Source: a virus (Duplodnaviria > Caudoviricetes). From it: DNA of 64,000 nucleotides. The notes below the pieces were generated by a model that was given only the letters and a program-made list of their open reading frames with translations, did no database searches and was not told the DNA's origin. The translations under genes and the position numbers were made by a program. This document shows positions 34,382 to 60,043 of the stretch, in pieces. The stretch covers positions 64,001 through 128,000 of IMG/VR virus record IMGVR_UViG_3300030330_004956; one strand, written 5' to 3'. Position 1 is the first letter of the stretch, and every line of letters begins with the position of its first letter.

Positions 34382-35239
34382 ATGAAAAAACTTTTTGAAA
34401 ACTGGAGAAAATATGTTCTAGTTGAAATGTCAACACCATTGACGAAATATCGAAGACTAATGGGTATGTTCCAAGGTGATGTGGAAAGTGTGGATCAGGT
34501 TGTCATGATGACACCAGAAAATCCACACGCTCGTTCTACGTCTGATGAGATCAACGCTAAACGAACAGAGCTTTTCAGAGAAGATATGAAAACTGCTGGG
34601 TATGGGTACCGCCCTGTTGAGGGTATGTACGGCGGCCCAGAAGACTCTTATGCAATCCCACATATGTCTAGAGAAGATGCTGCAAGGTATTCTTATAAGT
34701 ATGGGCAAGAGTCCTTTGTGTATTCTGTTCGTCAAGAGGGCGCCGATGCCAAGATGATTCACGAAATGGTTATGATTGACTACGCAGGAGCCCAACAGGA
34801 TGGCAGATATCCTCCAGAATTGTTCGGAGAGATTTACATCATGCCAGAGTCAGTTAATACGACAATTGATGCAGAAACCACAGAAATGCTGAACAGTCAA
34901 GATTTGGCTAGCGCAGAGGATTATTATTCTAATATTCCCGGCGCACCAGAGAGGGGTAGGCTGTCAATGGACTTCTACGGAGGAAAGCCTGTGGACAAGG
35001 GGCAGCAAGTCGGCGCTCCGGCAAATCCCAGATATGTTCGGGAAAGCACCTATATTGCGATCAGAGAGTCAGACGTACCATCTACTACAGAGGCACAAGC
35101 ACTGGCTAAAAAGATCAAGGATCGTAGTAGCAAGATAAACGAAAGCGATCGCCTTGGATCTTCAAAATATCATCATAGAAAGATGATGCTAGCAGAGAAG
35201 CAAGAATTGTTGAATATCATTAAAGAATTGGAGGAATAG
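34382..35239 (+). CDS. ENWR-leader protein with DUF3293-like domain
   Basis: MKKLFENWRKYVLVE; MTPENP..N..R...G.Y...EDSY...KYGQES. Confidence 0.55.
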   Translation: MKKLFENWRKYVLVEMSTPLTKYRRLMGMFQGDVESVDQVVMMTPENPHARSTSDEINAKRTELFREDMKTAGYGYRPVEGMYGGPEDSYAIPHMSREDAARYSYKYGQESFVYSVRQEGADAKMIHEMVMIDYAGAQQDGRYPPELFGEIYIMPESVNTTIDAETTEMLNSQDLASAEDYYSNIPGAPERGRLSMDFYGGKPVDKGQQVGAPANPRYVRESTYIAIRESDVPSTTEAQALAKKIKDRSSKINESDRLGSSKYHHRKMMLAEKQELLNIIKELEE

Positions 35240-35526
35240 TGAAGCCAGTAAATCGTAATTTGCTTATAGAGATAGAAAGAGAAAAGCCAGAGGAAACACA
35301 TTCATCAGCCTTTCTTTTGCCAGAAGACTACAAGAAGAAAGATGTAGAAAGATACAGTGTGGTAAAAATTTTACAACGCGCCGATGACTGCGAAAAGATA
35401 CGGGACATTCTAAGGCATGATAGGTGCGTCGTAGAGACTTCCATGATCAACGAAGTAAAAGTTGGCGGGAAAGTGTACAATATTGTTGGTGAGAACTATG
35501 TAGTTCTTATATTGGGGGATGAATGA
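35239..35526 (+). CDS. GroES-like co-chaperonin
   Basis: MKPVNRNLLIE, mobile-loop-like SAFLLP, EVKVGGKVYNIV.E; 95 aa. Confidence 0.6.
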   Translation: MKPVNRNLLIEIEREKPEETHSSAFLLPEDYKKKDVERYSVVKILQRADDCEKIRDILRHDRCVVETSMINEVKVGGKVYNIVGENYVVLILGDE

Positions 35527-36269
35527 TTGAGAAGAAGACTATTCATATTTACAATGACGGTATTGGCTCTGTCAGTCTCGTTGATAGCATGGGCTCAGAT
35601 CTCACTGTTGTTAACTCTGCTAGAGTATCGTTTGGGGTAGAAAAGGAAGAATTAAATGAAAGAGACAAGAAACTCATCAACTACCTTATACGGCACAGAC
35701 ACACTTCAACTTTGGAGCATAATCTTATTACTTTCAAGTTTTGTGTTCCTCTCTTCGTTCGCTCTCAGCACCATCGTCATCGGACATGGAGCTATAATGA
35801 GATCTCTCGGCGGTACACCGATAAAGACATACAATTTTATGTTCCCGAAAAGTTCCGCCCACAACACCCAACCAACAGACAAGCCTCAAGACACGACTAC
35901 GTTATAAATCCAGTTGTATATCCTCACGGCGCCTTTCATGATCTGCACAAATATTACTTTAGCGGAAAAAACACAACAGAATTAATGCAGATTCATACTG
36001 ATTCTTCTTTGAGTTTGTTTGAAGATATGATAGCTGCGGGGGTTTGTAGAGAGCAAGCCAGAATGGTACTGCCGCAAAGCATGTACACAGAATATTATGG
36101 AACAGTGAATCTTAACAATTTGCTTAAATTTGTTGATTTGCGCACACATGAAGGTGCCCAGTGGGAAATTAAAAAGGTTGCAGAAGCATGCTTGGACATA
36201 GCAACTGAATTATTTCCAGTGACGGTAGAATCATATAGGCGCATCAAAGATGAAAAAGAGTCCACATAG
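35523..36269 (+). CDS. thyX: Flavin-dependent thymidylate synthase
   Basis: ARVS, RHRTWSYNEISRRY, EQARMVLP, LR..AQWEI. Confidence 0.95.
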   Translation: MIEKKTIHIYNDGIGSVSLVDSMGSDLTVVNSARVSFGVEKEELNERDKKLINYLIRHRHTSTLEHNLITFKFCVPLFVRSQHHRHRTWSYNEISRRYTDKDIQFYVPEKFRPQHPTNRQASRHDYVINPVVYPHGAFHDLHKYYFSGKNTTELMQIHTDSSLSLFEDMIAAGVCREQARMVLPQSMYTEYYGTVNLNNLLKFVDLRTHEGAQWEIKKVAEACLDIATELFPVTVESYRRIKDEKEST

Positions 36270-37077
36270 AGAAACAAACTTATCATATGATAATGTGATA
36301 TTGGGAAGTTCGGTGCATGCTATGGTGGCAGCATACGTACATCAGGTACCCATATTTGGAAACATTACGCACCGTCCTATACCTTACTACTTTATTGAAG
36401 AGGGGGTAGATCTATCTTCGATAGGTGTAGACAACAAAACAAATACGTACACCAATCTTTCTGGTACAGAGCAAAGTTTCGGCATGCAACAAATCGAACT
36501 TTGGAATATTATGATGCACAGATTGTCTATAATGGGGCTAGCTCCAATGTTTGGTGATTATTATTATGACTATTTCACTGAACTGACAGAGATAGTGAAA
36601 ATGAAGTCACAACGCAATTTTAGCCTATCAGTAAAAAGTAAAATAGTGAATATACAGGCAGAGAACATCATAATTTTCGATTACCCCAGTTTTTACAATG
36701 GCTCTGCCACGTTTATGGTGAATGATCATGTTCGACTTAGAAACGCCAAAAACTTGAAAGCCGACATCATTAATGAGGTTGTGCCTGTTCCGCAATTCAT
36801 GGACACTTCGTGCTACCAGTCGATTGTGTACAAAGAGGGCAAGTATACTAATTGTTGCGTTAAGTCTATAGTTAGCGAAGACAATATGTCAAGCTTTGAC
36901 ACTAGTGAAACATCAATCAGATTAAAAACAGAAGCGTCTTTTTACTGGAATGTTGACAAAAAAATAAAAGTAGATTCTTTGTATCGAGAAAAGAGCCCAG
37001 TTCTTAAGCCAATGTACACTGATTTGGAAGAATTGGTATTAATGGATATATTTGCGCAAGAGTTGGTGTATCGATGA
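36250..37077 (+). CDS. Hypothetical protein with degenerate Rossmann-like N-terminus
   Basis: YDNVILGSS near the N-terminus. Confidence 0.45.
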   Translation: MKKSPHRETNLSYDNVILGSSVHAMVAAYVHQVPIFGNITHRPIPYYFIEEGVDLSSIGVDNKTNTYTNLSGTEQSFGMQQIELWNIMMHRLSIMGLAPMFGDYYYDYFTELTEIVKMKSQRNFSLSVKSKIVNIQAENIIIFDYPSFYNGSATFMVNDHVRLRNAKNLKADIINEVVPVPQFMDTSCYQSIVYKEGKYTNCCVKSIVSEDNMSSFDTSETSIRLKTEASFYWNVDKKIKVDSLYREKSPVLKPMYTDLEELVLMDIFAQELVYR

Positions 37078-37967
37078 GCAATTTTCATTTAGCTGGGATT
37101 ATACCGGTATCGAGCATAAAGTTAAATTATAATTTGCCATATCACCCATGTTTACTGCCAATCGAGGAAGATTTCTTGTTAATACACAGATCAATATTAG
37201 AATGTGCGTGGGCGGGCTGTGAAACAATATGGATTGTCATGGATCCAGACATAACTCCCATTTTTCGAAAAGTTGTGGGCGACTATGTTTACGATCCTGT
37301 AAACTATTATCGAGCACACGATATTGACAAAACCGCCAAGAGGACAATGATACCAATATATTTTACCACGGTTGACGTAAGGAACAGAGGCAAAAGAGAT
37401 TGTTATGGCTGGAGCATCATTGAAGGCGCTTATATGGCTTACAGGGTTTCAAATCAGCTATCCAAGTGGATAATACCAGACAAATATTATGTTTCTTTTC
37501 CTTGGGCAATATACCCTCCAGAAATAGTAAGAGAACATAGAAAGTTAATTTCTAGCACCAATAATCCAAACTTCATGATAACAAATAATAATGAAGGAGT
37601 CAAAGGTGACAAGTATCTGGGATTCACATTTGAACAAGAAGACTTCATAAATTGCCGCGCATTCGTTAGGGAGAATGGTACCGGTAGATATGTTCCCGGC
37701 GGAAAAAAGAATGAGGATGGCATCCCTAGAGAGCTTTTACCAATAGAGAAGCGATGGAGCGCCCGTAATTTTAAAATGTCAGAGGTTTTTTGTAAATTAC
37801 CAGATGATGTACACAAGATAGAATTGGATTATTATTATGATGTTACTTCGTGGAATGGATATCGTGAGTTTATGTCCTCGGATCTGGCAATAGAAAAGCC
37901 ACGCGTTAAAGAATGGTTATCAAAATCTAGATATAAAAAAGATTTACTAGATTTTCAAGACTTATAA
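37074..37967 (+). CDS. Sugar-nucleotidyltransferase-like protein, degenerate
   Basis: AGIIPV, PCLLPI, LIHRSILECAWAGCETIWIV, YYDVTSW; lacks the GxGTR loop. Confidence 0.55.
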   Translation: MSNFHLAGIIPVSSIKLNYNLPYHPCLLPIEEDFLLIHRSILECAWAGCETIWIVMDPDITPIFRKVVGDYVYDPVNYYRAHDIDKTAKRTMIPIYFTTVDVRNRGKRDCYGWSIIEGAYMAYRVSNQLSKWIIPDKYYVSFPWAIYPPEIVREHRKLISSTNNPNFMITNNNEGVKGDKYLGFTFEQEDFINCRAFVRENGTGRYVPGGKKNEDGIPRELLPIEKRWSARNFKMSEVFCKLPDDVHKIELDYYYDVTSWNGYREFMSSDLAIEKPRVKEWLSKSRYKKDLLDFQDL

Positions 37968-37968
37968 C

Positions 37969-37975
37969 CTATTTA
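37969..37975 (+). promoter_or_regulatory. Putative late promoter CTATTTA
   Basis: Heads the 37994-40117 gene run. Confidence 0.6.
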
Positions 37976-37993: not shown

Positions 37994-38341
37994 ATGAAAT
38001 TGCCCATTTTTATAGAAAATAGTAAAGTACCGGTATGGCTTTCTAAGATAGCTCCAATTGAGATTGGTGCAATTAGCTTTGGCATTTGGGTTTGGGATCG
38101 CGGTATTTCTTCTGAAAGAAGGAAGAGACATGAAACGATCCACTATAAACAACAATTAGAGCTTTTGTTTGTTTTCCAATGGATACTTTATGGGCTGTTC
38201 TGGTTAATTGGGAGAGTTAAATTTAGAGATGGTACATTGGCATATTACCAAAATCCATTTGAGATAGAAGCCTATGAAAATGATGAAGATCCAGACTACC
38301 TGTCGAACAGAAAGCCGTATAATTGGAGAAATTACCTGTGA
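37994..38341 (+). CDS. Small HExxH zincin-like protein
   Basis: RHETIH..Q...AYYQNPFEIEAY. Confidence 0.65.
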   Translation: MKLPIFIENSKVPVWLSKIAPIEIGAISFGIWVWDRGISSERRKRHETIHYKQQLELLFVFQWILYGLFWLIGRVKFRDGTLAYYQNPFEIEAYENDEDPDYLSNRKPYNWRNYL

Positions 38342-38505
38342 GAAATAGACAATACATTTTAAGCGTATTCTTGATGGCTGTCGTGGCTTTTATGTCGGTG
38401 TCATGCAAAAAAAAAGTGAAGACGGAGCCCCTAGTTCCTAGAACTTATGATGATTTACCGCCTTGGGATGAAGATGATGACGAACTACCAGAGGACATAA
38501 AATGA
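38338..38505 (+). CDS. Small lipoprotein
   Basis: GTG start after GGAG; hydrophobic stretch then SVSC lipobox; acidic tail. Confidence 0.55.
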   Translation: MRNRQYILSVFLMAVVAFMSVSCKKKVKTEPLVPRTYDDLPPWDEDDDELPEDIK

Positions 38506-39398
38506 AACTCTTAATGGAAAACTGGCGAAAGTTTATTATCAAAGAAGATATTGGATACTTTGGAAAGAAGTTTGTTCAATTTAAAGAAATGGTAGACGCA
38601 GGACACCACCCACTAAAGGTGGCAAAATTATATTTAACTTATGTCGGAAAAGGATCAACTAGAATGGTTTTCGGATTCAAAGACAACGACACTCATCTTT
38701 TGAAAGTGATAAATGTAGAATTAATTGACAACGAAGAGGCTTTTGATGAAGACTATGTGAATCCGTTTACCGGATTTACCAGAAAGCACAAAACAGTCTC
38801 AAATGAAAATGAAGCAGACTTAATGATGCAGCAAAGATATCCAAATGTATTCCCTAGAACATATGAATACGCAGAAGACTACAGTTGGATTTTGGTTGAA
38901 AAGGTAGATCCGATAACTAGCCAAGAATTGGCAGCACAACTTGGAATTCCAGAAGATCTGCCAACGCCAGAAAACAAAAACGCTTACATGGTTTTGTTGG
39001 ATTTGGTGATAGAAAAAGCAAGAGGCGGCTTCCAAATGAATGAAATCGAAGACACCGCAGTAATGTCTCCCAGACGAGTACCTGCACCACCTCCTGAGCA
39101 GCCACAGGAACAGACTTTTGGAGATACTGGATACACTCTATCAGGATTAGAAGATATGGCGACAGAGATTGTAAAAGATCGTCACCTTAAGAAACTTTTT
39201 AAGGCGGTTAGTGAATTAGGTATACCACCAAGAGAAATACAGCCTAAAAACTTGGGCATATCAAAATTCGGTGGCGATCACTTGGTTATTTTAGATGCTA
39301 GTCTTTGGGAATACGATCATGATGGAGGATCTATCAGCAAACAGATGGGCGCCGCCAGAGATCAAGCACCCCCCAGCCAAGATACTTTTAGATTATAA
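38502..39398 (+). CDS. ENWR-leader protein with protein-kinase-like fold
   Basis: MKLLMENWRKF; GKGSTRMVF, LLKV, NENE, ILVEKV, REIQPKNLG, VILDAS. Confidence 0.65.
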   Translation: MKLLMENWRKFIIKEDIGYFGKKFVQFKEMVDAGHHPLKVAKLYLTYVGKGSTRMVFGFKDNDTHLLKVINVELIDNEEAFDEDYVNPFTGFTRKHKTVSNENEADLMMQQRYPNVFPRTYEYAEDYSWILVEKVDPITSQELAAQLGIPEDLPTPENKNAYMVLLDLVIEKARGGFQMNEIEDTAVMSPRRVPAPPPEQPQEQTFGDTGYTLSGLEDMATEIVKDRHLKKLFKAVSELGIPPREIQPKNLGISKFGGDHLVILDASLWEYDHDGGSISKQMGAARDQAPPSQDTFRL

Positions 39399-39409
39399 GG
39401 AGAAATACA

Positions 39410-40117
39410 ATGAAAAGAATTATGGAAAATTGGAGAAGATTTAATCAACAGCCCTCTGGCTTGGTATTGACTGAAGAGAGGCTAGATGAAATTTTTGGCT
39501 TACAAAGAGGCGGTGTCGCACTGTCTGATCCAGAGAACTTACCAGCACCTGAATATCAAGAAAAGGCTGCACAAGCATATGAGTATTTAGAAAGATATCA
39601 AGACGAGATCTCTGCCGCTGCTAGCCGACAGGGTGTAGATCCAGAGCTTTTGTTGGGAATCCTTATGGACGAATACATTAGAATGTATCCCCGTGGATTT
39701 GGAGATCTTTTGGGATATTTTGGACTTATAAATGCATCAATGGGCGTTGCACAAGTTAAGGGCGATGTTGCCAGAAAACTTTCAGAAGAAGGGTATTATA
39801 CCCCACCCGGATATAAGCCTGATATGAGTCGCAAAGAATTGCAAAGAATGATAGCTGATAATCCTGAAGTTTCCATCAATTATGCCGCAGCATTTGTCAA
39901 ATACGTTGACGAAGCTTGGGGAGAAGAAGTTTGGGAACAAGTTCCACCAGAGGAAAAGAATGCTATCTTGGCAACTTTGTATTCTTTGGAAAGAGAGCCA
40001 CGAAAACCCGGTTCACCTGAGTGGGAAGAGCGTGGCGCACCTAAGCCCAGCGCCCGTGGCACACAGATCGCCGCGGCCGGCAAAAAAATATCACAAAGAG
40101 CACGGCACGATGTTTAG
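39410..40117 (+). CDS. ENWR-leader protein with lytic transglycosylase/lysozyme-like domain
   Basis: MKRIMENWRRF; ISAAASRQGVDPELLLGILMDE, SMGVAQV, NPEVSINYAAAF. Confidence 0.65.
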   Translation: MKRIMENWRRFNQQPSGLVLTEERLDEIFGLQRGGVALSDPENLPAPEYQEKAAQAYEYLERYQDEISAAASRQGVDPELLLGILMDEYIRMYPRGFGDLLGYFGLINASMGVAQVKGDVARKLSEEGYYTPPGYKPDMSRKELQRMIADNPEVSINYAAAFVKYVDEAWGEEVWEQVPPEEKNAILATLYSLEREPRKPGSPEWEERGAPKPSARGTQIAAAGKKISQRARHDV

Positions 40118-40124
40118 TAAAGAA

Positions 40125-40131
40125 CTATTTA
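40125..40131 (+). promoter_or_regulatory. Putative late promoter CTATTTA
   Basis: Intergenic, before ORF 40166. Confidence 0.6.
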
Positions 40132-40165
40132 GTCATGTGTAATTCGTATTTAAGGAGAATTAATA

Positions 40166-40498
40166 ATGAAAATAACAAGAAGTAAGCTTATAAGCATAAT
40201 CAAAGAAGAGGTTGAGGCGTATAGGCAAGAGCTATCAGAAATGGGAACATACAATAGAGGTGCCGCCATGGCAGATCCTTCTCGCGACATAAGTAGTCTT
40301 ATTGCTGATGCTATACGAGACATTATGAAAACCATGCCCCCAGCAGAAGCTAGAGCTAAAATACTTTCTATGTCTGTTGGAGAAATTATGGACATGGCAG
40401 GTATAGAAATGGATTCAGCCATGGATGCTCAAGCTGCCTCAACCGCACTTGGTAGACAACAGAGAGCCGTGCGGTACGCAGAGAGTAAAAAAAAGTAA
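40166..40498 (+). CDS. Hypothetical probable head-internal protein
   Basis: MKITRSKLISIIKEE leader; late-type promoter. Confidence 0.5.
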   Translation: MKITRSKLISIIKEEVEAYRQELSEMGTYNRGAAMADPSRDISSLIADAIRDIMKTMPPAEARAKILSMSVGEIMDMAGIEMDSAMDAQAASTALGRQQRAVRYAESKKK

Positions 40499-40500
40499 GT

Positions 40501-40525
40501 TGAATAATATAGCCCTTCAGTCGTA
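40501..40525 (+). promoter_or_regulatory. ECF-like promoter TGAATA-N15-CGTA (dnaE)
   Basis: Motif copy. Confidence 0.8.
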
Positions 40526-40562
40526 TTATACATGTAAATAAGCAATTTGAGGGAGTTATTTT

Positions 40563-43500
40563 ATGGATATCAAGAATATCAATTTTGTGAACCTGCACGC
40601 GCATTCTGGTGTAGGTTCGCCTTTCGATGGCTTCGGCTATCCACAGGATCACATGGAGTACGCATACTCCAACGGCTGCAAGGCTCTGGCACTTACTGAT
40701 CACGGTAACATGAACGGTTTTGCATACCAAGTGCTACATGCCAAGAAGATGAAAGAAGAGGGCAAGGACTTCAAACCTATCTTTGGCGTCGAGGCATACT
40801 TTATCGAAGATGTGGTAGACTGGAAAGAGAAGTACGAGCAAGCCAAACTAGACAAGAAGAAGGCTCGACAACTGGATAACAGCAAGTCTGGAATTAACAT
40901 TGAGGCTGCTGGCGAGTCCAAGTCTCAAGGGCGATCTGAATTGAATCGCTCACGCCACATTGTGCTTGTCGCTATGAACCAGACTGGCTTGAACAATATT
41001 TTCAAGATGGTTACAGAGTCGCACAAGGGTGACTACTTCTACCGCAAACCGCGCATTGACTTCGCACTACTTGAGAAGTACGGCGAGGGCGTTATTGCTG
41101 CTTCTGCGTGTCTTGGCGGTATCTATGCCGGCGCTTACTGGAGCAAGCAGGAAGAGGGCGAAGAGGCTGTCCTAGCTGAAATGCGCCGCCTTACCAAGCG
41201 CTTCCAATCTATTCTCGGTGATCGTTGGTATGGCGAGCTACAGTGGAACCGAGTGCCACAACAACACGCCCTTAACAACTATGTCATCAAGATGCACAAA
41301 GAGTTTGGTATCAAGCTTATCTCTACTGCCGACTCTCACTATCCAACGCCTGATGCTTGGAAGGATCGCGAGTTGTACAAGCGCCTAGGCTGGCTTGGGC
41401 GTTCTAAGCCCGAGTGGCTAGACATGGAACTTCCAACTGAGATTCAAGAGTTGGAGTGCGAATTATACCCAAAGAATGCAGAGCAGATGTGGGAGTCTTA
41501 CCAACGCTTCTCCGAAGAATGTGGCGTTGAGTATGATGATGACATTGTGCTGCAATCTATCAAGGAGACTGAGACTATCGGATTCGAGCGTATCGAAGAC
41601 TTCTTGCCAGATAATACAGTACGTCTACCAGACTTTGTTGTCCCAGCCGGCTATACTGCTGATGAATACTTGGAACACCTCACACATAAGAAGATGGCAC
41701 ATGCCGGTGATAACATCTTTAAAAATCAGGAGTATCGTGACAGATTGGATCAAGAACTCAAGGTTATCTCTGATCGTGGCTTTTCAAAGTACTTCTTGAC
41801 TATGGCTGCAATCTCAGGCAAGGCTAACGAAATGATGTTGTCCGGCCCGGGACGTGGTTCCGCCGCCGGCTCATTGGTTGCTTATCTTCTTGGTATTACA
41901 CAGGTTGATCCTATCAAGTACGGACTTCTGTTCTCTCGTTTCTTGCGAGCAGACGCTAAAGATTATCCAGATATCGATTATGATGTGGCTTCGCCTATGG
42001 AACTCAAGGACTTGCTTATCAATGAGTGGGGCGAGAACTCTGTTGCGCCTATCTCCAACTGGAACACTTTGCAATTGAAGTCTCTGATCAAGGACGTATC
42101 TAAGTTCTACAAGGTTGAGTTCAAAGAAGTCAACGCAGTTACCAGTCGTATGATCTCAGAAGCTACAGCACCAGCCAAGAAGAAGCATGGCATCAAAGCA
42201 GGTATGTATATTCCGACTTGGGAAGAGGTTCTAGAGTTCTCTGATACACTCAAGGCTTTCCTTAAGAAGTATCCCGACATCGAGAATCACGTCAAGGCTA
42301 TGGTTGGGCAGTATCGTTCTTGCTCTCGTCATGCCGGCGGTGTTGTGATCGCAGAGGATCTTGACAAGCACATGCCTCTTATCAACTCCGGTGGTGTCAT
42401 CCAGACTCCATGGAGTGAAGGGCAGAACGTCCGACAACTAGAGCCCATGGGCTTCATCAAGTTTGATATCTTGGGGCTTACGACTCTTCGCATGATTGAA
42501 GGCTGCATCGAGCGGATTCTATGTAAGGGTGGCAACTGTAGTCCTACATACAAGGACATTCAAGATTTCTACAATGAGCACTTGCATCCAGACGTTATGG
42601 ACTTTGACGATCAAACAGTTTATGAGAATGTCTTTCATCAAGGCAAGTGGGCAGGCATCTTTCAGTTCACAGAGTCTGGAGCGCAGAACTTCTGCAAACG
42701 CGCCCAGCCCACGTCTATCGTTGATATCTCAGCCATCACTTCCATCTTCCGCCCCGGCCCACTGTCTGCTGGCGTAGACAAGGATTATGTCAAGGCTAAG
42801 GAATATCCAGAAGATGTATGGTACGAGAACGAGATAGTTCGTGAAGTCACACAAGAGACATATGGCTTCTTGATCTTTCAAGAGCAGATTGCTATGCTTG
42901 CTCACAAGTTGGGCAAGGACATTTCTCTGGATGAGGGTAACTTGCTGCGCAAGCTGCTTACCAAGAAGGGCACCGGCAAGGGCGCCAAGCAGAAGAATTC
43001 TATCCGAGATCGCTTTGTGCAAGGCTGCATCGAAAAGGGCATGAAGCGCAATGACGCTCTGCATATGTGGCAGAACTTCGAATACTTCTCAGGGTACGGC
43101 TTCAACAAGTCGCATGCGGTTTGCTATTCTATGATTTCGTATCAGTGCGCATGGCTCATGACTTACCATGAAGGTGAGTGGATGGCTTCTTATCTTGACA
43201 AGGTTTCGGATAAGAAGAAAGAATCTGCCATCGCAACAGCCAAGACACTTGGATACAATATCTCTCAGTTGGACATCAACAAGTCTGGCAGAGAGTGGGA
43301 GTATGAAGAGGCGACAAACTCTCTTCTTCAGCCTCTCACGACAATCAAGGGCTTGGGTGCCTCTGCGATGGATCAGGTTGTGGAGCATCGCCCGTTCAAT
43401 ACTGTGGAAGACTTCTTGTTTCACCCTGATGTGAAATACAGTAAGCTAAACAAGAAGGCACTAGATGTTCTCGTCCGTGCAGGCGCCTGCAACGACTTGA

Positions 43501-44018
43501 TTGATGATCGCTTCAATGGCGCCAAGCATTTTTGGAGTGCCGCAGTTGTCGATCGCCCCAAGAACAAGAAGAAGTTTGGGGAGAACATTGAGCTATACAA
43601 GAATGAGGGCGACTTTGACAAGAATGAACTTATCTCTTTCAAGTCAGAACTTACAGGAATTTTTCCCTTTGACTTGGTTATGTCAGATACAATCCGCGTC
43701 AAGCTAGAGAAGTTGCCTGTAGTTCCAATCTCGGAATATGAAATGGCTATGTCGGTAGATGCTGGGCGAGAAGACGATCAGTTGTTGGTTTGGTTTGTTC
43801 CCCGCAAGCTGACACGGAAGAAGACAGCACGCGGCAGTGAATATTGGATCTTGGACGTTGTAGACTCTAACAATGCCATGGTTAGTATCAAGTGTTGGAA
43901 CCCACGCTCTAGTGACACCATCTTTGTGAACCAGCCGTACATGGCTCGTCTTGATCACTCAGATCAGTGGGGCTTCAGCACTCGTTCTATCAAGCATAAC
44001 TTTAGGCTGTTGGGGTAA
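40563..44018 (+). CDS. dnaE: DNA polymerase III alpha subunit (family C)
   Basis: PHP domain NLHAHS..LTDHG; GPGRGSAAGSLVAY; PDIDYD; HAGGVVI; KFDILGL; YGFNKSHA. Confidence 0.97.
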   Translation: MDIKNINFVNLHAHSGVGSPFDGFGYPQDHMEYAYSNGCKALALTDHGNMNGFAYQVLHAKKMKEEGKDFKPIFGVEAYFIEDVVDWKEKYEQAKLDKKKARQLDNSKSGINIEAAGESKSQGRSELNRSRHIVLVAMNQTGLNNIFKMVTESHKGDYFYRKPRIDFALLEKYGEGVIAASACLGGIYAGAYWSKQEEGEEAVLAEMRRLTKRFQSILGDRWYGELQWNRVPQQHALNNYVIKMHKEFGIKLISTADSHYPTPDAWKDRELYKRLGWLGRSKPEWLDMELPTEIQELECELYPKNAEQMWESYQRFSEECGVEYDDDIVLQSIKETETIGFERIEDFLPDNTVRLPDFVVPAGYTADEYLEHLTHKKMAHAGDNIFKNQEYRDRLDQELKVISDRGFSKYFLTMAAISGKANEMMLSGPGRGSAAGSLVAYLLGITQVDPIKYGLLFSRFLRADAKDYPDIDYDVASPMELKDLLINEWGENSVAPISNWNTLQLKSLIKDVSKFYKVEFKEVNAVTSRMISEATAPAKKKHGIKAGMYIPTWEEVLEFSDTLKAFLKKYPDIENHVKAMVGQYRSCSRHAGGVVIAEDLDKHMPLINSGGVIQTPWSEGQNVRQLEPMGFIKFDILGLTTLRMIEGCIERILCKGGNCSPTYKDIQDFYNEHLHPDVMDFDDQTVYENVFHQGKWAGIFQFTESGAQNFCKRAQPTSIVDISAITSIFRPGPLSAGVDKDYVKAKEYPEDVWYENEIVREVTQETYGFLIFQEQIAMLAHKLGKDISLDEGNLLRKLLTKKGTGKGAKQKNSIRDRFVQGCIEKGMKRNDALHMWQNFEYFSGYGFNKSHAVCYSMISYQCAWLMTYHEGEWMASYLDKVSDKKKESAIATAKTLGYNISQLDINKSGREWEYEEATNSLLQPLTTIKGLGASAMDQVVEHRPFNTVEDFLFHPDVKYSKLNKKALDVLVRAGACNDLIDDRFNGAKHFWSAAVVDRPKNKKKFGENIELYKNEGDFDKNELISFKSELTGIFPFDLVMSDTIRVKLEKLPVVPISEYEMAMSVDAGREDDQLLVWFVPRKLTRKKTARGSEYWILDVVDSNNAMVSIKCWNPRSSDTIFVNQPYMARLDHSDQWGFSTRSIKHNFRLLG

Positions 44019-47947: not shown

Positions 47948-48529
47948 ATGGCTAAAAAGAAATTATTACTAAACGAGAGCGTGACTCGTAGATTCATGAA
48001 GCTTGCTACGATCAAGCCAACGTATGTCTCGAATTTTATTACAGAGGCAGAGGAAGAGGATGAGCTTGCCCTTGATGGTGACGAGCCTGCCCCGCCCGCC
48101 GATGAACCCGCTCTTGACGCCGATCCCCCCGAAGATCCCATGATGGATCCCGGCTTAGAAACTGAAGATGAATTGGATGATCCAGTAGGAGACGCTGGAG
48201 GCGCAGAAGATCTAGTTATGGATTTACTAGCCAAAGTTCAAGAGTTCGCCAAGGAAAATGGCGTTAGCATGGAACTCGAAGGTGATGATGACGAAGATGA
48301 ATTGGATGAGCCCGATGCAGATGGTATGGAAGCAGAGTTAGATGATGCGGAACCGGAAGGAGGTGATTTACCGGGAGAAGCCGACGAGCCTGCGCCAGCA
48401 CTTGACGCTCCAGAAGAGGGCGGAGAAGAGTTGGCTCTTCAAGAGAATGTCGATCAAGATGCAATCGTTGCTGAAGTCACAAAGAGAGTTGCCAGACGTC
48501 TTCTCAAAGAGTCAGCAAAAAGAAAATAA
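47948..48529 (+). CDS. Highly acidic scaffold-like/internal head protein
   Basis: LLNESVTRRFMKLA resembles the scaffold C-terminus; D/E/P-rich; LxE sites. Confidence 0.55.
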   Translation: MAKKKLLLNESVTRRFMKLATIKPTYVSNFITEAEEEDELALDGDEPAPPADEPALDADPPEDPMMDPGLETEDELDDPVGDAGGAEDLVMDLLAKVQEFAKENGVSMELEGDDDEDELDEPDADGMEAELDDAEPEGGDLPGEADEPAPALDAPEEGGEELALQENVDQDAIVAEVTKRVARRLLKESAKRK

Positions 48530-49384: not shown

Positions 49385-50284
49385 ATGGCTATAAACAAAG
49401 TTTTTTATAACGAAGCCTCGGCAGCTAAACTGGGATGGGATCCAACTTGGTTTGGCTGTGATTCTTATGATGAGAAATTGGTTCGTGAAATTAAGAAGTG
49501 GCAAAGAGCCCATGGGCTGACTGCCGATGGGTTGTGCGGCGAAAACACTTTCAGAGTTCTTTTCAACGAACGACAGGCTAACATTTCAGATTATGTTTCG
49601 CCAAACTACGATAACGATGGTTTGGCACGCATTATATACAATGGCAATGAGTTCCCAATCGAGTGGGACAAGACGGTGCTTTGGACAGACAAGGGCGGAC
49701 ACATGGCTAAACTTGGAAACTATAAGAGCATGGCTGGAAAGCGAATCAGAAAGCCAACACAGTTTGTAAATCATTGGGACGTATGTTTGAATTCTAGAAC
49801 ATGCCAACGTGTCTTGGACAGGAGGGGTATCAGTGTACACTTCCTCATCGATAATGACGGCACAATCTACCAAACCATGGATTTGCAACATATCGGATGG
49901 CATGCCGGCTCAAGCAAGATTAACGCAAAGTCAATCGGAGTCGAGATAAGTTGCGCTTTCGATCTTAAGTGGCAAAGCTGGTACAGAAAGCACGGCTTTG
50001 GAGAACGCCCAATCCTTAAGAGTTCTTATGTTCATGGCAAAAGACTACGCCCCCACCTAGGCTTCTATCCTGTGCAATTAGAGGCTCTACAAGCCTTATG
50101 GAAGGCTGTTCACTTGGCATGTGGCATACCACTAGAGACGCCAACTGGAGCCGCAAAAAATGCATACACAGCAGAAGTTTCAAGTGGCAGATTCAAGGGC
50201 TTTGTTTCGCACTATCACATTACAAAGCGCAAGATTGACTGTGGCGGCTTGGATATCGAAAAGTTATTGGAGGACTTGAAATGA
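49385..50284 (+). CDS. Endolysin: peptidoglycan-binding domain plus Amidase_2
   Basis: WQRAHGLTADGLCG; VNHWD, SVHFLIDNDG, WHAG, SIGVEI, SHYH..KIDC. Confidence 0.88.
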   Translation: MAINKVFYNEASAAKLGWDPTWFGCDSYDEKLVREIKKWQRAHGLTADGLCGENTFRVLFNERQANISDYVSPNYDNDGLARIIYNGNEFPIEWDKTVLWTDKGGHMAKLGNYKSMAGKRIRKPTQFVNHWDVCLNSRTCQRVLDRRGISVHFLIDNDGTIYQTMDLQHIGWHAGSSKINAKSIGVEISCAFDLKWQSWYRKHGFGERPILKSSYVHGKRLRPHLGFYPVQLEALQALWKAVHLACGIPLETPTGAAKNAYTAEVSSGRFKGFVSHYHITKRKIDCGGLDIEKLLEDLK

Positions 50285-51735
50285 AAAATTTAGAACATTG
50301 GAAAATGATGCTTGAGGCTTTGAACAATCTGCAAGAAAGGGTTGAAATGAGTGAACCCGTACAAACTGATACCGATAATCCAGAAAACACTGGCAAGTAT
50401 TTCTTGCCGACAATTAAAATTACAGAGGATTGGGGCAGGATCGGATCGAAAGACAGGCAGATCATTGAGAAGTTCACAAGAAACATTGGTGGCACCACAC
50501 TAGCCGAAAAAATTGCAAACATTAATAGTGTTATCACCGACAGAGAAGCAACTACAATTCCAAAAATTCTAGGTTCTATGGTAGTTATCGAGATTCTTAA
50601 TGCCGTGCTCAGAGAGTTTACAGAGTCAGCCGGCGGCTTCATCTTTGAAGGCTTCTTGGCTGGACTGTTCGGTGGCGAAGCTGTGCAGATTACAGATGTT
50701 GGCGATCAGGCAGCAGCAGGCGAGGCAACAGAGGCAGCAGGAAAACCAATCACGGACGTTGTACTAGGCGGCAGAGAGTATTCATTGAAGTTGCTTGGGC
50801 AGACTACGGCAGTGAAAGGCTCATTCAAGAATATGGTTGAGCACTTCCGCGTCAAAGATCATATTGTCTATCTCGATGCAAGACGCACACAGGCAGACGG
50901 AGAGCTTAGTGGCTTAGAGTTTGGAGAGTTCACCATCACCAGAGAAAACTTCATGCAAGTATTCATGGATCCATTCTTGAAAGATGTTACAGCAAAATCA
51001 TCCGAGCCCATTGAGTCAGCAAGTGCATTGAGAACTGCTATGCAAAAACTAGAAACCACAAACAATCCTTTGAAAAAATTAGCATGGACTGGCGGCTGGA
51101 AGCCCGAAGGCGCCACTAGAAGTGTTGGTACGAGCATACAGTATGGAAAGCCAAGGGGCGCCCCAGAGGGTGAACTAAACGAGAAAATATATTATGGTGA
51201 AGACTTTGCCACTGCAATACAGTCTTTCATGAACATGACAGATGAAGAACTGGACAGATATGCACCCTTTACTCTTTCTTGGGCGGACAAGAAGTTCGAA
51301 GGAACAAAAGCAGAAAAACTGTTTGGAAGTTTTACACTAGCATCCGCAATCAAAGATGCAAGTGAATCAGGTGATACCACAAAGCTTTTTGAACTATTGG
51401 AGACAACCCCGGGCTATACTGAATCACTACAGTTTGACTTTACAAGAGGACAAGCAGAATCAATTGTTAACTTTGAAGAGATTGGGACTCTCAACATCAG
51501 TGAGGGTACCTTGAAGGATACATGGCTAGCATATGGGGAAGTACTATCGCAAACCGTTGAGCCAATTTACAAATCTCTTAATGAGTTTACAGAGAACATC
51601 AACTCTTTCCTTACCGAAGAACAAAATCAAGACGGTAACAGAAAACAGTATGGCTTGGCTGCTGGCACCAGCGCCAAAGATCTAAAAACCGCAACAGACA
51701 AGGCAGTGCAAGATATGACTGCCGATGCTGAATAA
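50281..51735 (+). CDS. Leader-bearing protein with PD-(D/E)xK-like nuclease motif
   Basis: MKNLEHWKMMLE; GFIFEGFLAGLFGG...ITDV...YSLKL. Confidence 0.45.
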   Translation: MKNLEHWKMMLEALNNLQERVEMSEPVQTDTDNPENTGKYFLPTIKITEDWGRIGSKDRQIIEKFTRNIGGTTLAEKIANINSVITDREATTIPKILGSMVVIEILNAVLREFTESAGGFIFEGFLAGLFGGEAVQITDVGDQAAAGEATEAAGKPITDVVLGGREYSLKLLGQTTAVKGSFKNMVEHFRVKDHIVYLDARRTQADGELSGLEFGEFTITRENFMQVFMDPFLKDVTAKSSEPIESASALRTAMQKLETTNNPLKKLAWTGGWKPEGATRSVGTSIQYGKPRGAPEGELNEKIYYGEDFATAIQSFMNMTDEELDRYAPFTLSWADKKFEGTKAEKLFGSFTLASAIKDASESGDTTKLFELLETTPGYTESLQFDFTRGQAESIVNFEEIGTLNISEGTLKDTWLAYGEVLSQTVEPIYKSLNEFTENINSFLTEEQNQDGNRKQYGLAAGTSAKDLKTATDKAVQDMTADAE

Positions 51736-51773: not shown

Positions 51774-53363
51774 GTGAAGAAATATTCTAACACTAGCGAA
51801 CTAAGACAATCAATCGTTGATGGAATCAACATTCTAGCGGACAATGTAGCCGCTACGTTAGGGCCGAAAGGGCAGAACGTAATTATTCAAAGAAAAGATA
51901 ATCTACCATTTGTAACAAAAGACGGTGTAACCGTAGCAAAGTTTGTTAACTTAGAAGATCCGTTTCAAAATGCTGCTGTAGAAATTCTAAAGCAAGCCAG
52001 CCTGCAAACCAATGCAGAGGCTGGCGATGGAACGACAACTTCCACTGTAATCGCCAGAGCTATCATTAACGAGGCACAAAAGTATATTGTGTCTGGCGTT
52101 TCGCCTATTGAACTAAAGAGAGGAATGGATAAGACATGTGACGCCCTAGTTGATAACCTAATCGACTCAGCCCGTCCTATCCGTTCGCTTGAAGATATCC
52201 AGCACATTGCTAAGATTTCTGCCAACAATGATAAAATGATTGGTGATGTCGTAGCACGCGCTGTGGATCTTGCCGGTAAAGACGGCACAGTTATTATCGA
52301 AGAAGCAAGATCCAATAAAACCTCTTTAAACCTTATTGAAGGTTTTAAGATTGATTCAGGCTTTGCAGCCGGTGCCTTTGTGACTGATGAACGTCGAGGC
52401 ATATGTTATTACGACAATCCACTCATCCTCGTTACGGACGAGCGACTAGAGAGTGTTGATGAGATGCTTCCGTTACTTGAACAAGTGGCTAGAGATGGAC
52501 GTCCTCTCGTCATTGTTGCGGAGGAAATCGTCGAACAGGCACTGGCTGCTCTTATTATGAATGCCATTCGTGGAACAATGCGAATTGTTGGCATCAAAGC
52601 TCCCCGCTACGGAGAAGAGCGCAAGAACATTCTAAAGGATCTTGCAATTTCCGTTGGAGCAACTTACATTTCTAGGGAGTCTAATGTCCTTATGAGGGAC
52701 GTCAAGATTGAACACCTAGGTACCTGCAAATCTATCGAAGCAGGAACATCTAAGACTACCTTTGTTGGCGGCAAAGGAGAGGGCGAGGCTGTCGAAAAGA
52801 GGATTGAGGCTGTTAAGGCATTGCTAAAGCAGTCCGAATCGACGCACGAACAAAAGACATTGAATGAGCGCATCACACGACTCGCATCAGGAGTGTCGGT
52901 TATTCGTGTTGGGGGTGCCACGCAAGTGGAAATGACAGAGACTAAGCACAGAGTTGAAGATGCCCTAGAAGCCATCAGATCCGCCCAGAAGGACGGAATT
53001 ACAACTGGTGGTGGTACTGCTCTTCTTAGTGCCAGAAGTGGCTTAGAAGAGGATCTAACGTTCGAAAACGCAGATCAGAGACTGGGCGCAGAAATCCTTC
53101 TTAGAGCATGTGAATCGCCATTCCGCCAACTCTGCCGCAATGCTGGGGTTTCGGAAGATATCATATTGAGTCAGATTGAGTCATCGCAGCAAGAAAATGC
53201 TGGATATGATTTTCGTAATCTTAAAGAATGTGATATGTATACTACAGGTATAATAGATCCTGTAAAAGTAACCAAGACTGCACTTATCAATGCTGTGTCG
53301 GTTGCTTCAACTTTGCTAAACACAAATCATGCAATTGTTCAGATTGATAGCAAAGAATCATAA
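51774..53363 (+). CDS. groEL: Chaperonin GroEL
   Basis: TLGPKG, TKDGVTVAK, AGDGTTT, KAPRYG, IRVGGAT, GGGTAL, GIIDPVKV. Confidence 0.97.
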   Translation: MKKYSNTSELRQSIVDGINILADNVAATLGPKGQNVIIQRKDNLPFVTKDGVTVAKFVNLEDPFQNAAVEILKQASLQTNAEAGDGTTTSTVIARAIINEAQKYIVSGVSPIELKRGMDKTCDALVDNLIDSARPIRSLEDIQHIAKISANNDKMIGDVVARAVDLAGKDGTVIIEEARSNKTSLNLIEGFKIDSGFAAGAFVTDERRGICYYDNPLILVTDERLESVDEMLPLLEQVARDGRPLVIVAEEIVEQALAALIMNAIRGTMRIVGIKAPRYGEERKNILKDLAISVGATYISRESNVLMRDVKIEHLGTCKSIEAGTSKTTFVGGKGEGEAVEKRIEAVKALLKQSESTHEQKTLNERITRLASGVSVIRVGGATQVEMTETKHRVEDALEAIRSAQKDGITTGGGTALLSARSGLEEDLTFENADQRLGAEILLRACESPFRQLCRNAGVSEDIILSQIESSQQENAGYDFRNLKECDMYTTGIIDPVKVTKTALINAVSVASTLLNTNHAIVQIDSKES

Positions 53364-58023: not shown

Positions 58024-58027
58024 TTTA

Positions 58028-58104
58028 GGGCACTTAGTTCAGTTGGTTAGAGCACCCCGCTCATAACGGGATAGTCCTCGGTTCAAGTCCGAGAGTGCCC
58101 ACCA
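58028..58104 (+). tRNA. tRNA with CAT anticodon, probably Ile2 (lysidine type); Met not excluded
   Basis: GGGCACT/AGTGCCC-A-CCA; CT-CAT-AA loop; lacks the initiator C1:A72 mismatch. Confidence 0.85.
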
Positions 58105-58122
58105 TTTATAAAAGGAGAGAGA

Positions 58123-58293
58123 ATGATTGACTATACTATTATGGAATACGATATCGAAACTAGAAAATACACACCGATCGGAATTGCTGAAGGCATTGAT
58201 GGAAAACATGCCAAAAGGAATTATATAAAGAGACACGGCTGGAATGAACGTGAAGGTGTACATCTATTTGCAAAGCCGCCGCTTTGTAGATAA
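58123..58293 (+). CDS. Small hypothetical protein inside the tRNA cluster (56 aa)
   Basis: AGGAG RBS; MIDYTIMEYD...KPPLCR*. Confidence 0.55.
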   Translation: MIDYTIMEYDIETRKYTPIGIAEGIDGKHAKRNYIKRHGWNEREGVHLFAKPPLCR

Positions 58294-58300
58294 CAAACAA

Positions 58301-58374
58301 TGCCCCTTAGCTCAGATGGTTAGAGCAGCGGACTGTTAATCCGCGTGTCCTCGGTTCAAGTCCGAGAGGGGCAG
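58301..58374 (+). tRNA. tRNA-Asn(GTT), canonical, CCA not encoded
   Basis: TGCCCCT/AGGGGCA-G; GCGGA-CT-GTT-AA-TCCGC. Confidence 0.93.
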
Positions 58375-58377
58375 CAT

Positions 58378-58453
58378 GGGTTGTTAGCTCAATAGGTAGA
58401 GCATCGGGCTTTTAACCCGCAGGTTCCGAGTTCGAGTCTCGGACAACCCACCA
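58378..58453 (+). tRNA. tRNA-Lys(TTT)
   Basis: GGGTTGT/ACAACCC-A-CCA; CT-TTT-AA loop. Confidence 0.93.
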
Positions 58454-58457
58454 TTTT

Positions 58458-58490
58458 TGAATAAAACATATCTTTGAATCGTACTATTTA
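58458..58490 (+). promoter_or_regulatory. Tandem ECF-like (58458-58483) and CTATTTA (58484-58490) promoters
   Basis: The two motifs abut before the TlpA-like gene. Confidence 0.7.
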
Positions 58491-58506
58491 TATAAAAAGG
58501 TGATTT

Positions 58507-58977
58507 ATGAGAAGTATTTTATTTATGTTGGCTCTGGCTTGTGTAACCCCACCAGCCGCCGCAAACAGTTCTTTTTTGACTAGAGATATAAACGGAAAAG
58601 TTGTAAATCTAGACGAACACAAAGACGAAATAGTTATGCTAAACTTTTGGGCTACTTGGTGCGCCCCATGCAAAGTTGAAATGCCGCAACTACAAAAGCT
58701 AAAAGAAAAGTATGGTGACAAACTAACGATTGTTTCCGTCAGTGTTGACGAAGCAAGAGATAAAAGCAAAATCAAGCCTCTCATAAGAAGAGGTAACTAT
58801 GATTTTATTGTGGTGCATGATGACGATAGGAGCATAATGTCTTTCTACAATCCGTCAATGGATCTGCCGTATAATGTGATCATGGGTTACGGGGGAGATA
58901 TAGTTTGGCAGGGCGCAGGCTATTCACCGGGGAAAGAAAAGGTTTTTGAAAAGATTATTGATAGTATTATCAAATGA
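58507..58977 (+). CDS. TlpA/thioredoxin-like disulfide reductase, exported
   Basis: LNFWATWCAPC..EMP; N-terminal signal/lipobox LALAC. Confidence 0.9.
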   Translation: MRSILFMLALACVTPPAAANSSFLTRDINGKVVNLDEHKDEIVMLNFWATWCAPCKVEMPQLQKLKEKYGDKLTIVSVSVDEARDKSKIKPLIRRGNYDFIVVHDDDRSIMSFYNPSMDLPYNVIMGYGGDIVWQGAGYSPGKEKVFEKIIDSIIK

Positions 58978-58981
58978 TTTA

Positions 58982-59009
58982 TTGACATCAGAGATCTGGT
59001 GTCTATAAT
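58982..59009 (+). promoter_or_regulatory. Sigma70-consensus promoter TTGACA-N16-TATAAT
   Basis: Both hexamers perfect; upstream of the Hsp20 gene. Confidence 0.75.
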
Positions 59010-59073
59010 AAAGTAAGATCGCTCATTTGAGGATCTTCAAAGTCATACTTTGCTTAATAAGGAGGATATAAAT

Positions 59074-59499
59074 ATGACACAACTACAACTAGCAATCCCA
59101 TCACTAATGGGTAGAAACGTATGGAGTGATTTCTTCGACGATTTCTTATCAAATCCGACGAAAGTCGTAAAACAAACTACAACAGGCTATCCAGTCACAG
59201 ACATTTTCAGAGACGTAGAAGAAAATCAAGTTATCGAAATGGCACTGGCTGGGTTTACAAAAGAGTCAATCACTGTCGAAACACAATCTAATCAGATTAC
59301 GATTAGATCAGAGGGCATCGAAAATCGTCCCTCGGATAATCATGGCGGTATTGCACGCAGAGCCTTCAAGAAAACTTTCATTGATTATAACAATGAGTTA
59401 GAACTTTCCGATGCAAAAGTAACTTTTGTACAAGGATTGTTGCGCGTTGTTATTCCGATGAAAGAGGCGGCATACCCTAGGCAGATAACGATTGAATAA
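59074..59499 (+). CDS. Small heat-shock protein (Hsp20/IbpA-like)
   Basis: GYPVTDI, IEMALAGF, GGIARRAF, GLLRV, RQITIE. Confidence 0.9.
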   Translation: MTQLQLAIPSLMGRNVWSDFFDDFLSNPTKVVKQTTTGYPVTDIFRDVEENQVIEMALAGFTKESITVETQSNQITIRSEGIENRPSDNHGGIARRAFKKTFIDYNNELELSDAKVTFVQGLLRVVIPMKEAAYPRQITIE

Positions 59500-59518
59500 A
59501 AACAGTAGTTCAATCGTA
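59493..59518 (+). promoter_or_regulatory. ECF-like promoter TGAATA-N16-CGTA
   Basis: Motif copy overlapping a GAA-TAA stop. Confidence 0.8.
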
Positions 59519-59533
59519 CTATAACTATGGTAA

Positions 59534-59568
59534 GGGTTGTTACTCTTATTTGGGTAACAACCTATTTA
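59534..59568 (+). promoter_or_regulatory. Hairpin abutting a CTATTTA promoter
   Basis: GGGTTGTTACTC-TTATTT-GGGTAACAACCT; CTATTTA at 59562-59568. Confidence 0.55.
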
Positions 59569-59590
59569 CTATGCCAAGGAGGCACATTAT

Positions 59591-60043
59591 ATGAATAAAA
59601 GAAAATGGTACAACTATGTCTTTGAAACACAGGACGATACATATAAGCAAAAGCTCTACAAAGTGCCCATGCGATTCAAAGTAAGAAAAAAGGATGGCGG
59701 GAACAAGTCCGAAACAGAGGACGATTTACGGGCAGTGCCTCAAATAACAGCACTTTCTCTTCCTAGAGATAGGAAGTCAGACAGTGAGAGTTGGTATATG
59801 ACTTACGATTTAAAATTTGCATTACCGATAGGTGGCTCACCGCAAGATCATGTTAGGAATGACATGGTGCCAGCGGTAAACGCCGTCAAGGGATTGGAAA
59901 TACTTTCTTATGGAGAGGCTTTTCAAGTGTATGACGCTCAGGACGATACAATAGGAGATCCCGATAAGGATCGCTCCAAGGTTTTTGGTGGCGATGACAG
60001 GAGGCAATCCAAGAGCGACACCGACATAGAGGGAGGGGAGTAA
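59591..60043 (+). CDS. Hypothetical protein, probable late/virion
   Basis: MNKRKWYNYVFE leader; late-type promoter. Confidence 0.55.
   Translation: MNKRKWYNYVFETQDDTYKQKLYKVPMRFKVRKKDGGNKSETEDDLRAVPQITALSLPRDRKSDSESWYMTYDLKFALPIGGSPQDHVRNDMVPAVNAVKGLEILSYGEAFQVYDAQDDTIGDPDKDRSKVFGGDDRRQSKSDTDIEGGE

Follow-up and report, generated by a model that had tools for sequence, protein, structure and literature searches.

An ENWR leader peptide on unrelated proteins of uncultured, distantly T4-like marine phages: a candidate removable address tag for the phage head

Background

Why should a kinase-like protein, a putative cell-wall enzyme and a DUF3293 protein, whose bodies have nothing in common, all begin with nearly the same short peptide, built around the residues ENWR? 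The question is raised by a 64,000-nucleotide (nt) stretch of viral DNA, hereafter the window, which makes up bases 64001-128000 of a 184,889-bp record of the IMG/VR database (IMGVR_UViG_3300030330_004956). Positions refer to the window unless they are given as genome positions, which count along the full record, and almost all genes of the record lie on one strand. By its sequence the source virus is an uncultured marine phage that is distantly T4-like, since the nearest cultured capsid proteins, those of Microcystis phage Mel-JY01, Flavobacterium phage immuto and Rhodothermus RM378, are merely 36-44% identical to its own. A preliminary description of the window had pointed to the ENWR leader on several unrelated enzymes and had suggested that it loads them into the head for delivery at infection. 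In the present study we establish the tag itself, its position within proteins, its spread, its restriction to one clade, the presence of a head protease gene, the statistics of the motif at its end and its promoter context. Taken together and read by analogy with T4, these features make it probable, in our judgment, that the ENWR peptide and a partner peptide, MKITKxQLKQIIKEE, form a removable address tag for the phage head, of the same kind as the signals for capsid targeting and trimming in T4.

The ENWR leader and its spread

The ENWR leader, which we call class A, has the consensus M1 K2 L3 [LI]4 [MF]5 E6 N7 W8 R9 [KR]10 [FY]11 [LVI]12 x13 E14 when one representative per family is counted, and this is followed by an acidic stretch. 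Five proteins of the genome carry it, three of them in the window (tagged proteins 1 to 3, which start at 34382, 38502 and 39410; Table 1) and two outside it (genome 154536 and 169337). A 20-column profile of the leader, run against the whole genome, recovers precisely these five, the sole extra being a weak match to the last ten residues of the genome 169337 protein. The three N-termini in the window are just as the preliminary description had given them, and its statement that unrelated bodies stand behind the leader is likewise borne out, there being no BLAST similarity among the three and a match to DUF3293 for the body of 34382. The form that is longer by one residue, as seen at 34382 and 38502, covers several further families. 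In the predicted structures of 39410 and 38502 the leader is a helix that is not packed on the body, and the first ten residues have predicted local distance difference test (pLDDT) values of 53 and 58, respectively.

Searches beyond this genome, of which the profile and the catalogue of cargo had been proposed in the preliminary description, give the leader a wide but sharply bounded distribution. A degenerate DNA pattern for MENWRK[FY] matches 108 stretches in viral contigs, with a start codon precisely four codons 5' of the motif in 83 instances (63 of them distinct); the resulting prefix is almost always MKL[LI], and [LVI]-x-E usually comes next. The same pattern yields chance matches only in 596 Gb of cellular genomes, where one of 120 has such a prefix, on an open reading frame (ORF) of 13 codons. 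A profile scan of all the related viral loci that were fetched returns 152 distinct class A proteins in 101 families with bodies unrelated by BLAST, and a 30-column profile set against 1.84 billion cluster representatives finds 1,560 proteins at E<=0.001, almost all of which, among the 150 matches listed from this large library, align from residue 1. Portability of the leader, as first claimed for a handful of proteins, thus extends to 101 families in related loci and to 1,560 clusters in the large library. Position is kept as strictly, with 156 of 167 distinct motif occurrences at the N-terminus, ten with GTG or TTG starts or short extensions, and one at the C-terminus. Near-complete genomes have 2-9 class A genes each, and the contigs that carry them all resemble fragments of genomes of ~185-200 kb. 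Neither class A nor the second class described below was found in 50,697 records of cultured phages, searches by tblastn with the 20-22-residue leaders included. The ENWR leader occurs far beyond chance and is restricted to one phage clade.

A shared protein start could also be the by-product of a mobile DNA cassette, made up of a promoter, a ribosome site and the first codons, with a peptide that has no function of its own. Cassette shuffling does occur in T4-type genomes, and half of the class A genes are in tandem arrays in variable regions, 80 of the 152 directly adjoining another class A gene. The codons tell otherwise. L3 and R9 are each encoded by six different codons, the third codon position is unconstrained at both of these residues and at residue 12, and the stretch of 40 nt 5' of class A genes holds 0-0.5 bit of information per position; because third codon positions are free and the upstream DNA is nearly uninformative, selection is on the protein and not on the DNA. 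Synonymous positions vary where the amino acids are fixed, and a cassette of this type cannot yield the C-terminal copies of the leader described below, so that the codon analysis leads us to reject this explanation, to which we allow scarcely any chance.

A second leader, a short form and a C-terminal copy

An N-terminal similarity network built from five complete genomes brought out a second leader, class B, with the consensus MK[IL]TKxQLKQIIKEE. It equals class A in length and in the register of its hydrophobic-x-E, and it is found on 49 distinct proteins of 44 families in the related loci. The protein at 40166, which had been listed as a looser version of the ENWR leader, does bear a leader, but one that belongs to this different class. 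As far as can be judged from comparing homologues, the two classes are interchangeable on the same cargo bodies. The DUF3293 body has class A at 34382 and class B in a relative (G030), two more such cross-class pairs were found in the class B survey of the same loci, the muramidase-like family has six homologues with class A and three with class B, and the 84 homologues of the kinase-like family include 58 with class A and about a dozen with a class-B-like leader.

Shorter versions also exist. The form W-x-x-[FY]-[LIV]-x-E, with 5-6 residues ahead of the W, has a frequency among the first 35 residues of proteins that is 42 times that in their interiors, and it is also found on a conserved 783-aa (amino acid) late protein and its orthologues. 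Of the remaining looser versions that had been put forward, the one at 59591 fits this short form but does not match the class A profile, and the one on the nuclease-like protein at 50281 was rejected, as it has no profile match at E up to 10 and the N-termini of its orthologues are unrelated.

The leader is not confined to protein starts. The genome 169337 protein carries it at both ends, and the C-terminal copy comes directly after I-R-E/S. In P0252, a homologue from another sample that is 72% identical, V-N-E/SKIIMENWKKFIS is kept to the same last residue while the flanks diverge. The C-terminal leader has been verified in these two proteins only, and three library proteins (P0008, P0040 and P0055) are candidates.

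Two observations touch on where the leaders may have come from. One homologue of the 38502 protein, P0215, starts with MNLLREYVRMILED, which resembles the N-terminus of the prohead protease of this clade (MKLLREYYELCEGG) and belongs to neither leader class; it may be a third type of leader, borrowed from the protease. At least four of the five genomes have a conserved gene of 145 aa (L003:12076-12513, genome 56076-56513) directly after the protease gene. The N-terminus of its product, of the MKKSELKAIIKECVKE type, has a weak resemblance to class B (profile E 5e-4 to 0.5), and the gene may encode a core or scaffold protein ancestral to that class. Derivation of class B from the 145-aa gene, and of class A from the protease N-terminus (profile E 0.57), is a lead rather than a finding, as both resemblances are weak.

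The cutting site and the head protease

In phage T4, gp21 cuts after L/I-x-E, and the N-terminal capsid targeting sequences (CTSs) of the internal proteins are 10-19 residues long, with residues 4 and 7 targeting and residues 8 and 10 directing the cut; the Alt protein is trimmed at both ends (PMC9026906). The present genome encodes a protease of the gp21 type, a gp22-like scaffold and a capsid protein of the Gp23 family (Table 1), and Peptidase_S77 is encoded in 29 of 50 carrier contigs and in all six of those that are at least 90% complete. The capsid protein has an L-R-E, conserved in the five genomes, at the position that aligns with L-T-E/A of T4 gp23. Within class A, a hydrophobic residue at position 12 together with E at 14 is found in 69 of the 101 families as compared to 38 of 1,038 other proteins (3.7%). 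The source is T4-like, encodes a gp21-type protease and has a leader that ends in the L/I-x-E motif of that type of protease. The presumed site follows an N-terminal leader and precedes a C-terminal one, as would be expected of a removable address. In three relatives (G030, G034 and G043), the genes on either side of the protease gene encode proteins with tag-like N-termini.

The bodies behind the leaders bear a complementary mark. For [LI]-x-E, the ratio of observed to expected occurrences is 0.92 in the bodies of class A and 0.93 in those of class B; in the same genomes, the other proteins of 80-450 aa give 1.21. No depletion is seen in the cargo for the control motifs [LI]-x-D, [LI]-x-K and E-x-[LI]. 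Cargo bodies specifically avoid [LI]-x-E.

A conserved cutting motif and avoidance of the site would suit any substrate of an L/I-x-E protease, and the leader could be a pro-sequence that keeps enzymes inactive or stable until a protease of phage or host removes it, i.e., a zymogen or timing device that involves no targeting. Such a device would make sense for the part of the cargo that looks toxic (Zeta_toxin, Tox-PLDMTX and cell-wall hydrolases). It is hard to see, though, how a helix of 14 residues that is left unpacked in the models could inhibit 100 unrelated folds, and a pro-sequence would not be expected to occur C-terminally or to swap freely with a second tag. The sole candidate for an L/I-x-E protease that is encoded is, moreover, the prohead protease, and its T4 counterpart is described as working inside the prohead (PMC9026906). 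We see a slim chance that the leader is such a device.

Late promoters and cargo

The heptamer CTATTTA, the core of a late-type promoter, occurs at 25-47 sites on the coding strand of the five genomes versus 4-12 on the other strand, and it precedes gp22-like, sheath-region and other structural genes. Among class B genes, 9 of 20 have the heptamer in the 60 nt ahead of them, as compared to 71 of 942 other genes; among class A genes, it is found within 1 kb for 14 of 28, as compared to 208 of the 942. The site at 37969 is 533 nt before 38502 and 1441 nt before 39410, which share an operon. Outside the structural block, five of the ten intergenic late sites of the genome would drive tagged genes, three of them in the window (37969, 40125 and 59562) and two elsewhere (genome 145672, ahead of a class B gene, and genome 166971, ahead of the 783-aa short-form protein and the doubly tagged protein); an extra CTATTTA lies within a small ORF 228 nt before the genome 154536 protein. 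It appears from this layout that the late-promoter islands amid replication genes mostly drive tagged genes. The earlier assertion that all the listed genes except 34382 lie downstream of CTATTTA holds; for 50281 the closest site is 960 nt upstream and within a gene. The counterpart of 34382 in G030 has a late site 42 nt upstream.

Some features of this promoter landscape are recorded here in their own right. The early/middle promoter motif GAATA-N15-17-CGTA is present at 55 sites on the coding strand and five on the opposite strand of this genome (e.g., at 34337-34360 and 40499-40562) and is nearly absent (0-2 sites) from the four related complete genomes, CTATTTA being common to all; the clade seems to have exchanged its early promoters. 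A 193-aa protein (47948-48529) with a late promoter 51 nt upstream has an N-terminus, MAKKKLL(L)NE..(T/I)RR, that is kept in all five genomes. Two further late-promoter genes outside the structural block (58507-58977 and genome 149698-150348) have signal-peptide-like N-termini (MRSILFMLALACV and MTLIAFLLSSFALAQ) and may encode exported late proteins.

As for the cargo, about 80% of the 101 family representatives have no Pfam match, and searches of tagged proteins and of protease-neighbour genes against PHROGs and PDB sequences gave almost no matches. The Pfam matches that were obtained are to NUDIX (2), AAA_33 (2), Zeta_toxin, PGDYG, Peptidase_M23, pentapeptide repeats, LRV, DUF3293, Pkinase, YkuD, NT5C, C5 DNA methylase, cytidylyltransferase, a 2H-phosphoesterase-type domain and Tox-PLDMTX. 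The model of the 39410 body (pLDDT 82) finds its best Foldseek match in Tse3 (E 7.6e-4, template-modelling (TM) score 0.58), a type VI muramidase effector, followed by MltE, MltC and g-type lysozyme, and its weak Pfam matches are to T6SS_Tse3_cat (E 0.017) and SLT (E 0.027). For 38502, which has no Pfam match, the top 50 Foldseek matches to the model (pLDDT 85.5) all have the kinase fold at TM scores of only 0.2-0.3, and residues G49, G51, K68, N250 and D265 are invariant or almost so in its family. The model folds agree with the names transglycosylase-like and kinase-like that these two proteins had been given, in the latter case at low TM. No signal peptide was found in either protein, and cell-wall enzymes that lack one (the Tse3-like fold, Peptidase_M23 and YkuD) fit delivery by ejection.

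Cargo and promoters also bear on the possibility that the leader is a docking helix for some destination other than the capsid, e.g., the GroEL/GroES-like chaperonin of the phage or an intracellular assembly or replication body, in which case the enzymes would do their work inside the infected cell rather than be injected. The largely cytoplasmic enzymology of the cargo (NUDIX, P-loop kinases, NT5C, cytidylyltransferase and C5 methylase) is in keeping with this, as are the early/middle-type promoter of 34382 and the location of tagged genes amid replication genes. GroEL is encoded in six of six complete carrier genomes, so that co-occurrence does not discriminate, and recognition of a sequence tag at the N-terminus is not known to us for any chaperonin. 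A destination outside the capsid would leave several things unaccounted for, namely, the fixed [LVI]-x-E at the end of the tag and the mirrored site before C-terminal tags, the avoidance of [LI]-x-E in cargo bodies, the enrichment of late promoters and the tag-like neighbours of the protease. We consider such a destination unlikely, but not negligibly so.

A proposed route into the head

With the head as destination, and with docking, cutting, packaging and injection all drawn by analogy from T4, the course of events would be as follows. The tag, a short amphipathic helix at the start of the protein or, rarely, at its very end, would be made late and would dock the protein on the scaffold core while the prohead is being built. 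Cutting would then fall to the gp21-type head protease, which would act behind the [LVI]-x-E at the end of an N-terminal tag and behind the one preceding a C-terminal tag. The mature protein would thereby be set free within the capsid and could exit along with the DNA when the next cell is infected. The set of cargo would vary by phage, with the 2-9 class A genes of each genome drawn from a pool of more than a thousand families that includes the kinase-like protein, cell-wall enzymes, NUDIX hydrolases, P-loop kinases and a DNA methylase.

This retains the outline of the capsid-loading proposal made in the preliminary description, for which the portable tag, the gp21-type protease, the L/I-x-E end and the mostly late promoters all speak, and amends it in that 50281 is not a bearer, 40166 bears the other tag and 34382 has an early/middle promoter. 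Several points weigh against the proposed route. Much of the cargo (NUDIX, HAD-like proteins, nucleotide kinases and the methylase) could work equally well in the cytoplasm during infection, 34382 stands behind an early/middle-type promoter in this genome, and several arrays in relatives are 4-8 kb from the closest exact CTATTTA. About a quarter of the families have no [LVI]-x-E at positions 12-15, and the L/I-x-E specificity that we infer for the protease of this clade comes from one aligned site, that of the capsid protein. The likeness of class A to the protease N-terminus (MKLLREYY, and QLLIETW in T4 gp21) is a visual one, with a profile E of 0.57, and the tag is four residues longer than MKTYQEFIAE, the CTS of T4, with which it has no detectable sequence homology. 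The rival explanations account for less of the evidence than does an address tag for the head. The chances seem to us about even that the complete picture applies, i.e., a modular delivery system in which two swappable, removable tags, placed at either end, would bring some ten enzymes per virion, taken from more than a thousand families of kinases, cell-wall hydrolases, nucleotide-modifying enzymes, toxin-like domains and a methylase, into the head to be injected with the DNA.

Features of the window and neighbouring genes

The positions of the tagged proteins, of the promoters ahead of them and of the head genes are collected in Table 1.

Table 1. Locations of leader-bearing proteins, promoters and head genes in the window and in the rest of the genome
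Feature	Location	Strand	Details
gp22-like scaffold protein	window 2726..3811	+	presumed docking partner; 12 [LI]-x-E sites
Major capsid protein, Gp23 family	window 3824..5611	+	PF07068, E 1e-73; predicted maturation site L-R-E at residues 62-64 (nt 4007-4015)
Early/middle-type promoter, TGAATA-N15-CGTA	window 34337..34360	+	immediately 5' of tagged protein 1
Tagged protein 1, 285 aa	window 34382..35239	+	class A leader, residues 1-15 MKKLFENWRKYVLVE, L-V-E at 13-15; DUF3293 body
Late-type promoter core, CTATTTA	window 37969..37975	+	heads the late island 37994-40498, which includes tagged proteins 2 and 3
Tagged protein 2, 298 aa	window 38502..39398	+	class A leader, residues 1-15 MKLLMENWRKFIIKE, I-K-E at 13-15; body with protein-kinase-like fold
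Tagged protein 3, 235 aa	window 39410..40117	+	class A leader MKRIMENWRRF, conserved L-T-E at 20-22; Tse3/lytic-transglycosylase-like body
Late-type promoter core, CTATTTA	window 40125..40131	+	41 nt before the class B gene at 40166
Class B tagged protein, 110 aa	window 40166..40498	+	leader MKITRSKLISIIKE, I-K-E at 12-14
Protein of 484 aa	window 50281..51735	+	N-terminus MKNLEHWKMMLE; not accepted as leader-bearing
Late-type promoter core, CTATTTA	window 59562..59568	+	29 nt before 59591
Candidate short-form tagged protein, 150 aa	window 59591..60043	+	MNKRKWYNYVFE fits W-x-x-[FY]-[LIV]-x-E; weaker case than the other members
T4 gp21-type prohead protease, Peptidase_S77	genome 55539-55991		upstream of the window; PF03420, E 1.4e-33; full gene at genome 55443-56075
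Tagged protein, 300 aa	genome 154536		acidic
Doubly tagged protein, 493 aa	genome 169337		central segment hydrophobic, membrane-like

Other genes of the window are of interest for reasons of their own. A DnaE-type DNA polymerase III alpha subunit of 1151 aa with a PHP-domain start (40563-44018) has similarity, among cultured phages, solely to DnaE-like genes of Streptomyces phages. GroEL (529 aa) is encoded at 51774-53363 and a GroES-like protein of 95 aa at 35239-35526. Tiny genes of ~55-85 aa, some 50 in tandem arrays over the five genomes, always have the N-terminus MKVGDLV(K/R), and their stop and start codons overlap; the arrays are at G000:C1:129263-135712, just past the end of the window, and in relatives G008, G030 and G034. 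These genes form another family, separate from the tagged proteins, that is defined by its N-terminus and probably encodes small paralogous early proteins.

Comparison with known systems

The principle of such a tag is known from T4, whose diverse internal proteins have just the CTS in common (PMC3012670). The leaders described here are like the T4 CTS in being short N-terminal peptides on unrelated proteins (14-22 residues here, 10-19 in T4) that start with MK, have hydrophobic or aromatic residues at the targeting positions and end in L/I-x-E, the gp21 site. The phages are alike as well in encoding a gp21-type protease together with a gp22-like scaffold and in having cargo genes that vary among relatives, and the doubly tagged genome 169337 protein recalls the trimming of Alt at both ends. 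The differences are as plain. Here there are two interchangeable tag classes, short forms and a C-terminal version, and where T4 has three internal proteins plus Alt, a small sample here gives more than 100 families and the large library 1,560 clusters. The predicted cargo here is mostly enzymes, whereas that of T4 consists of small basic proteins associated with the DNA.

Two other systems invite comparison. In phiKZ-like giant phages (phiKZ, 201phi2-1 and SPN3US), dozens of head-internal proteins are trimmed after glutamate by a diverged gp21-type protease and many are ejected (PMC9026906, PMC7411985). Their propeptides are long and have no single shared tag, the motif is S/A-x-E, and the evidence comes from mass spectrometry, in contrast to the genes on which the present case is built. 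Another parallel, outside the phages, is provided by cargo-loading peptides of encapsulins, where a short, portable terminal peptide directs unrelated enzymes into a shell of the HK97 fold and works as a fusion tag. Encapsulin peptides usually sit at the C-terminus; they attach to the shell protein itself and stay on the cargo, and neither a protease nor DNA takes part. Among the papers that were searched, none has this motif or reports such tags in marine phages. What is new relative to T4 is the tag sequences, the two swappable classes, the C-terminal form and a pool of cargo that is two to three orders of magnitude above that of T4; new as observations are the swapping of tags, the mirrored C-terminal tag, the avoidance of the cutting site, the pattern of promoter islands and the control with cellular genomes.

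Conclusions

The capsid-targeting tag of T4 serves a handful of proteins and is the basis of the engineering of T4 for protein delivery. In abundant phages of the ocean this logic seems to operate on a much larger scale, with more than a thousand families of cargo. If these proteins are indeed packaged, a simple sequence rule would predict from metagenomes the injected effector set of uncultured phages, which would otherwise be impossible without culture, hundreds of unknown protein families would become candidates for host takeover or anti-defence, and the binding and cutting rules of T4-type head assembly could be put to a ready test. If the modular delivery system is real in full, the phage head would be a programmable carrier of effectors, with a diversity comparable to that of the effector repertoires of bacterial secretion systems.

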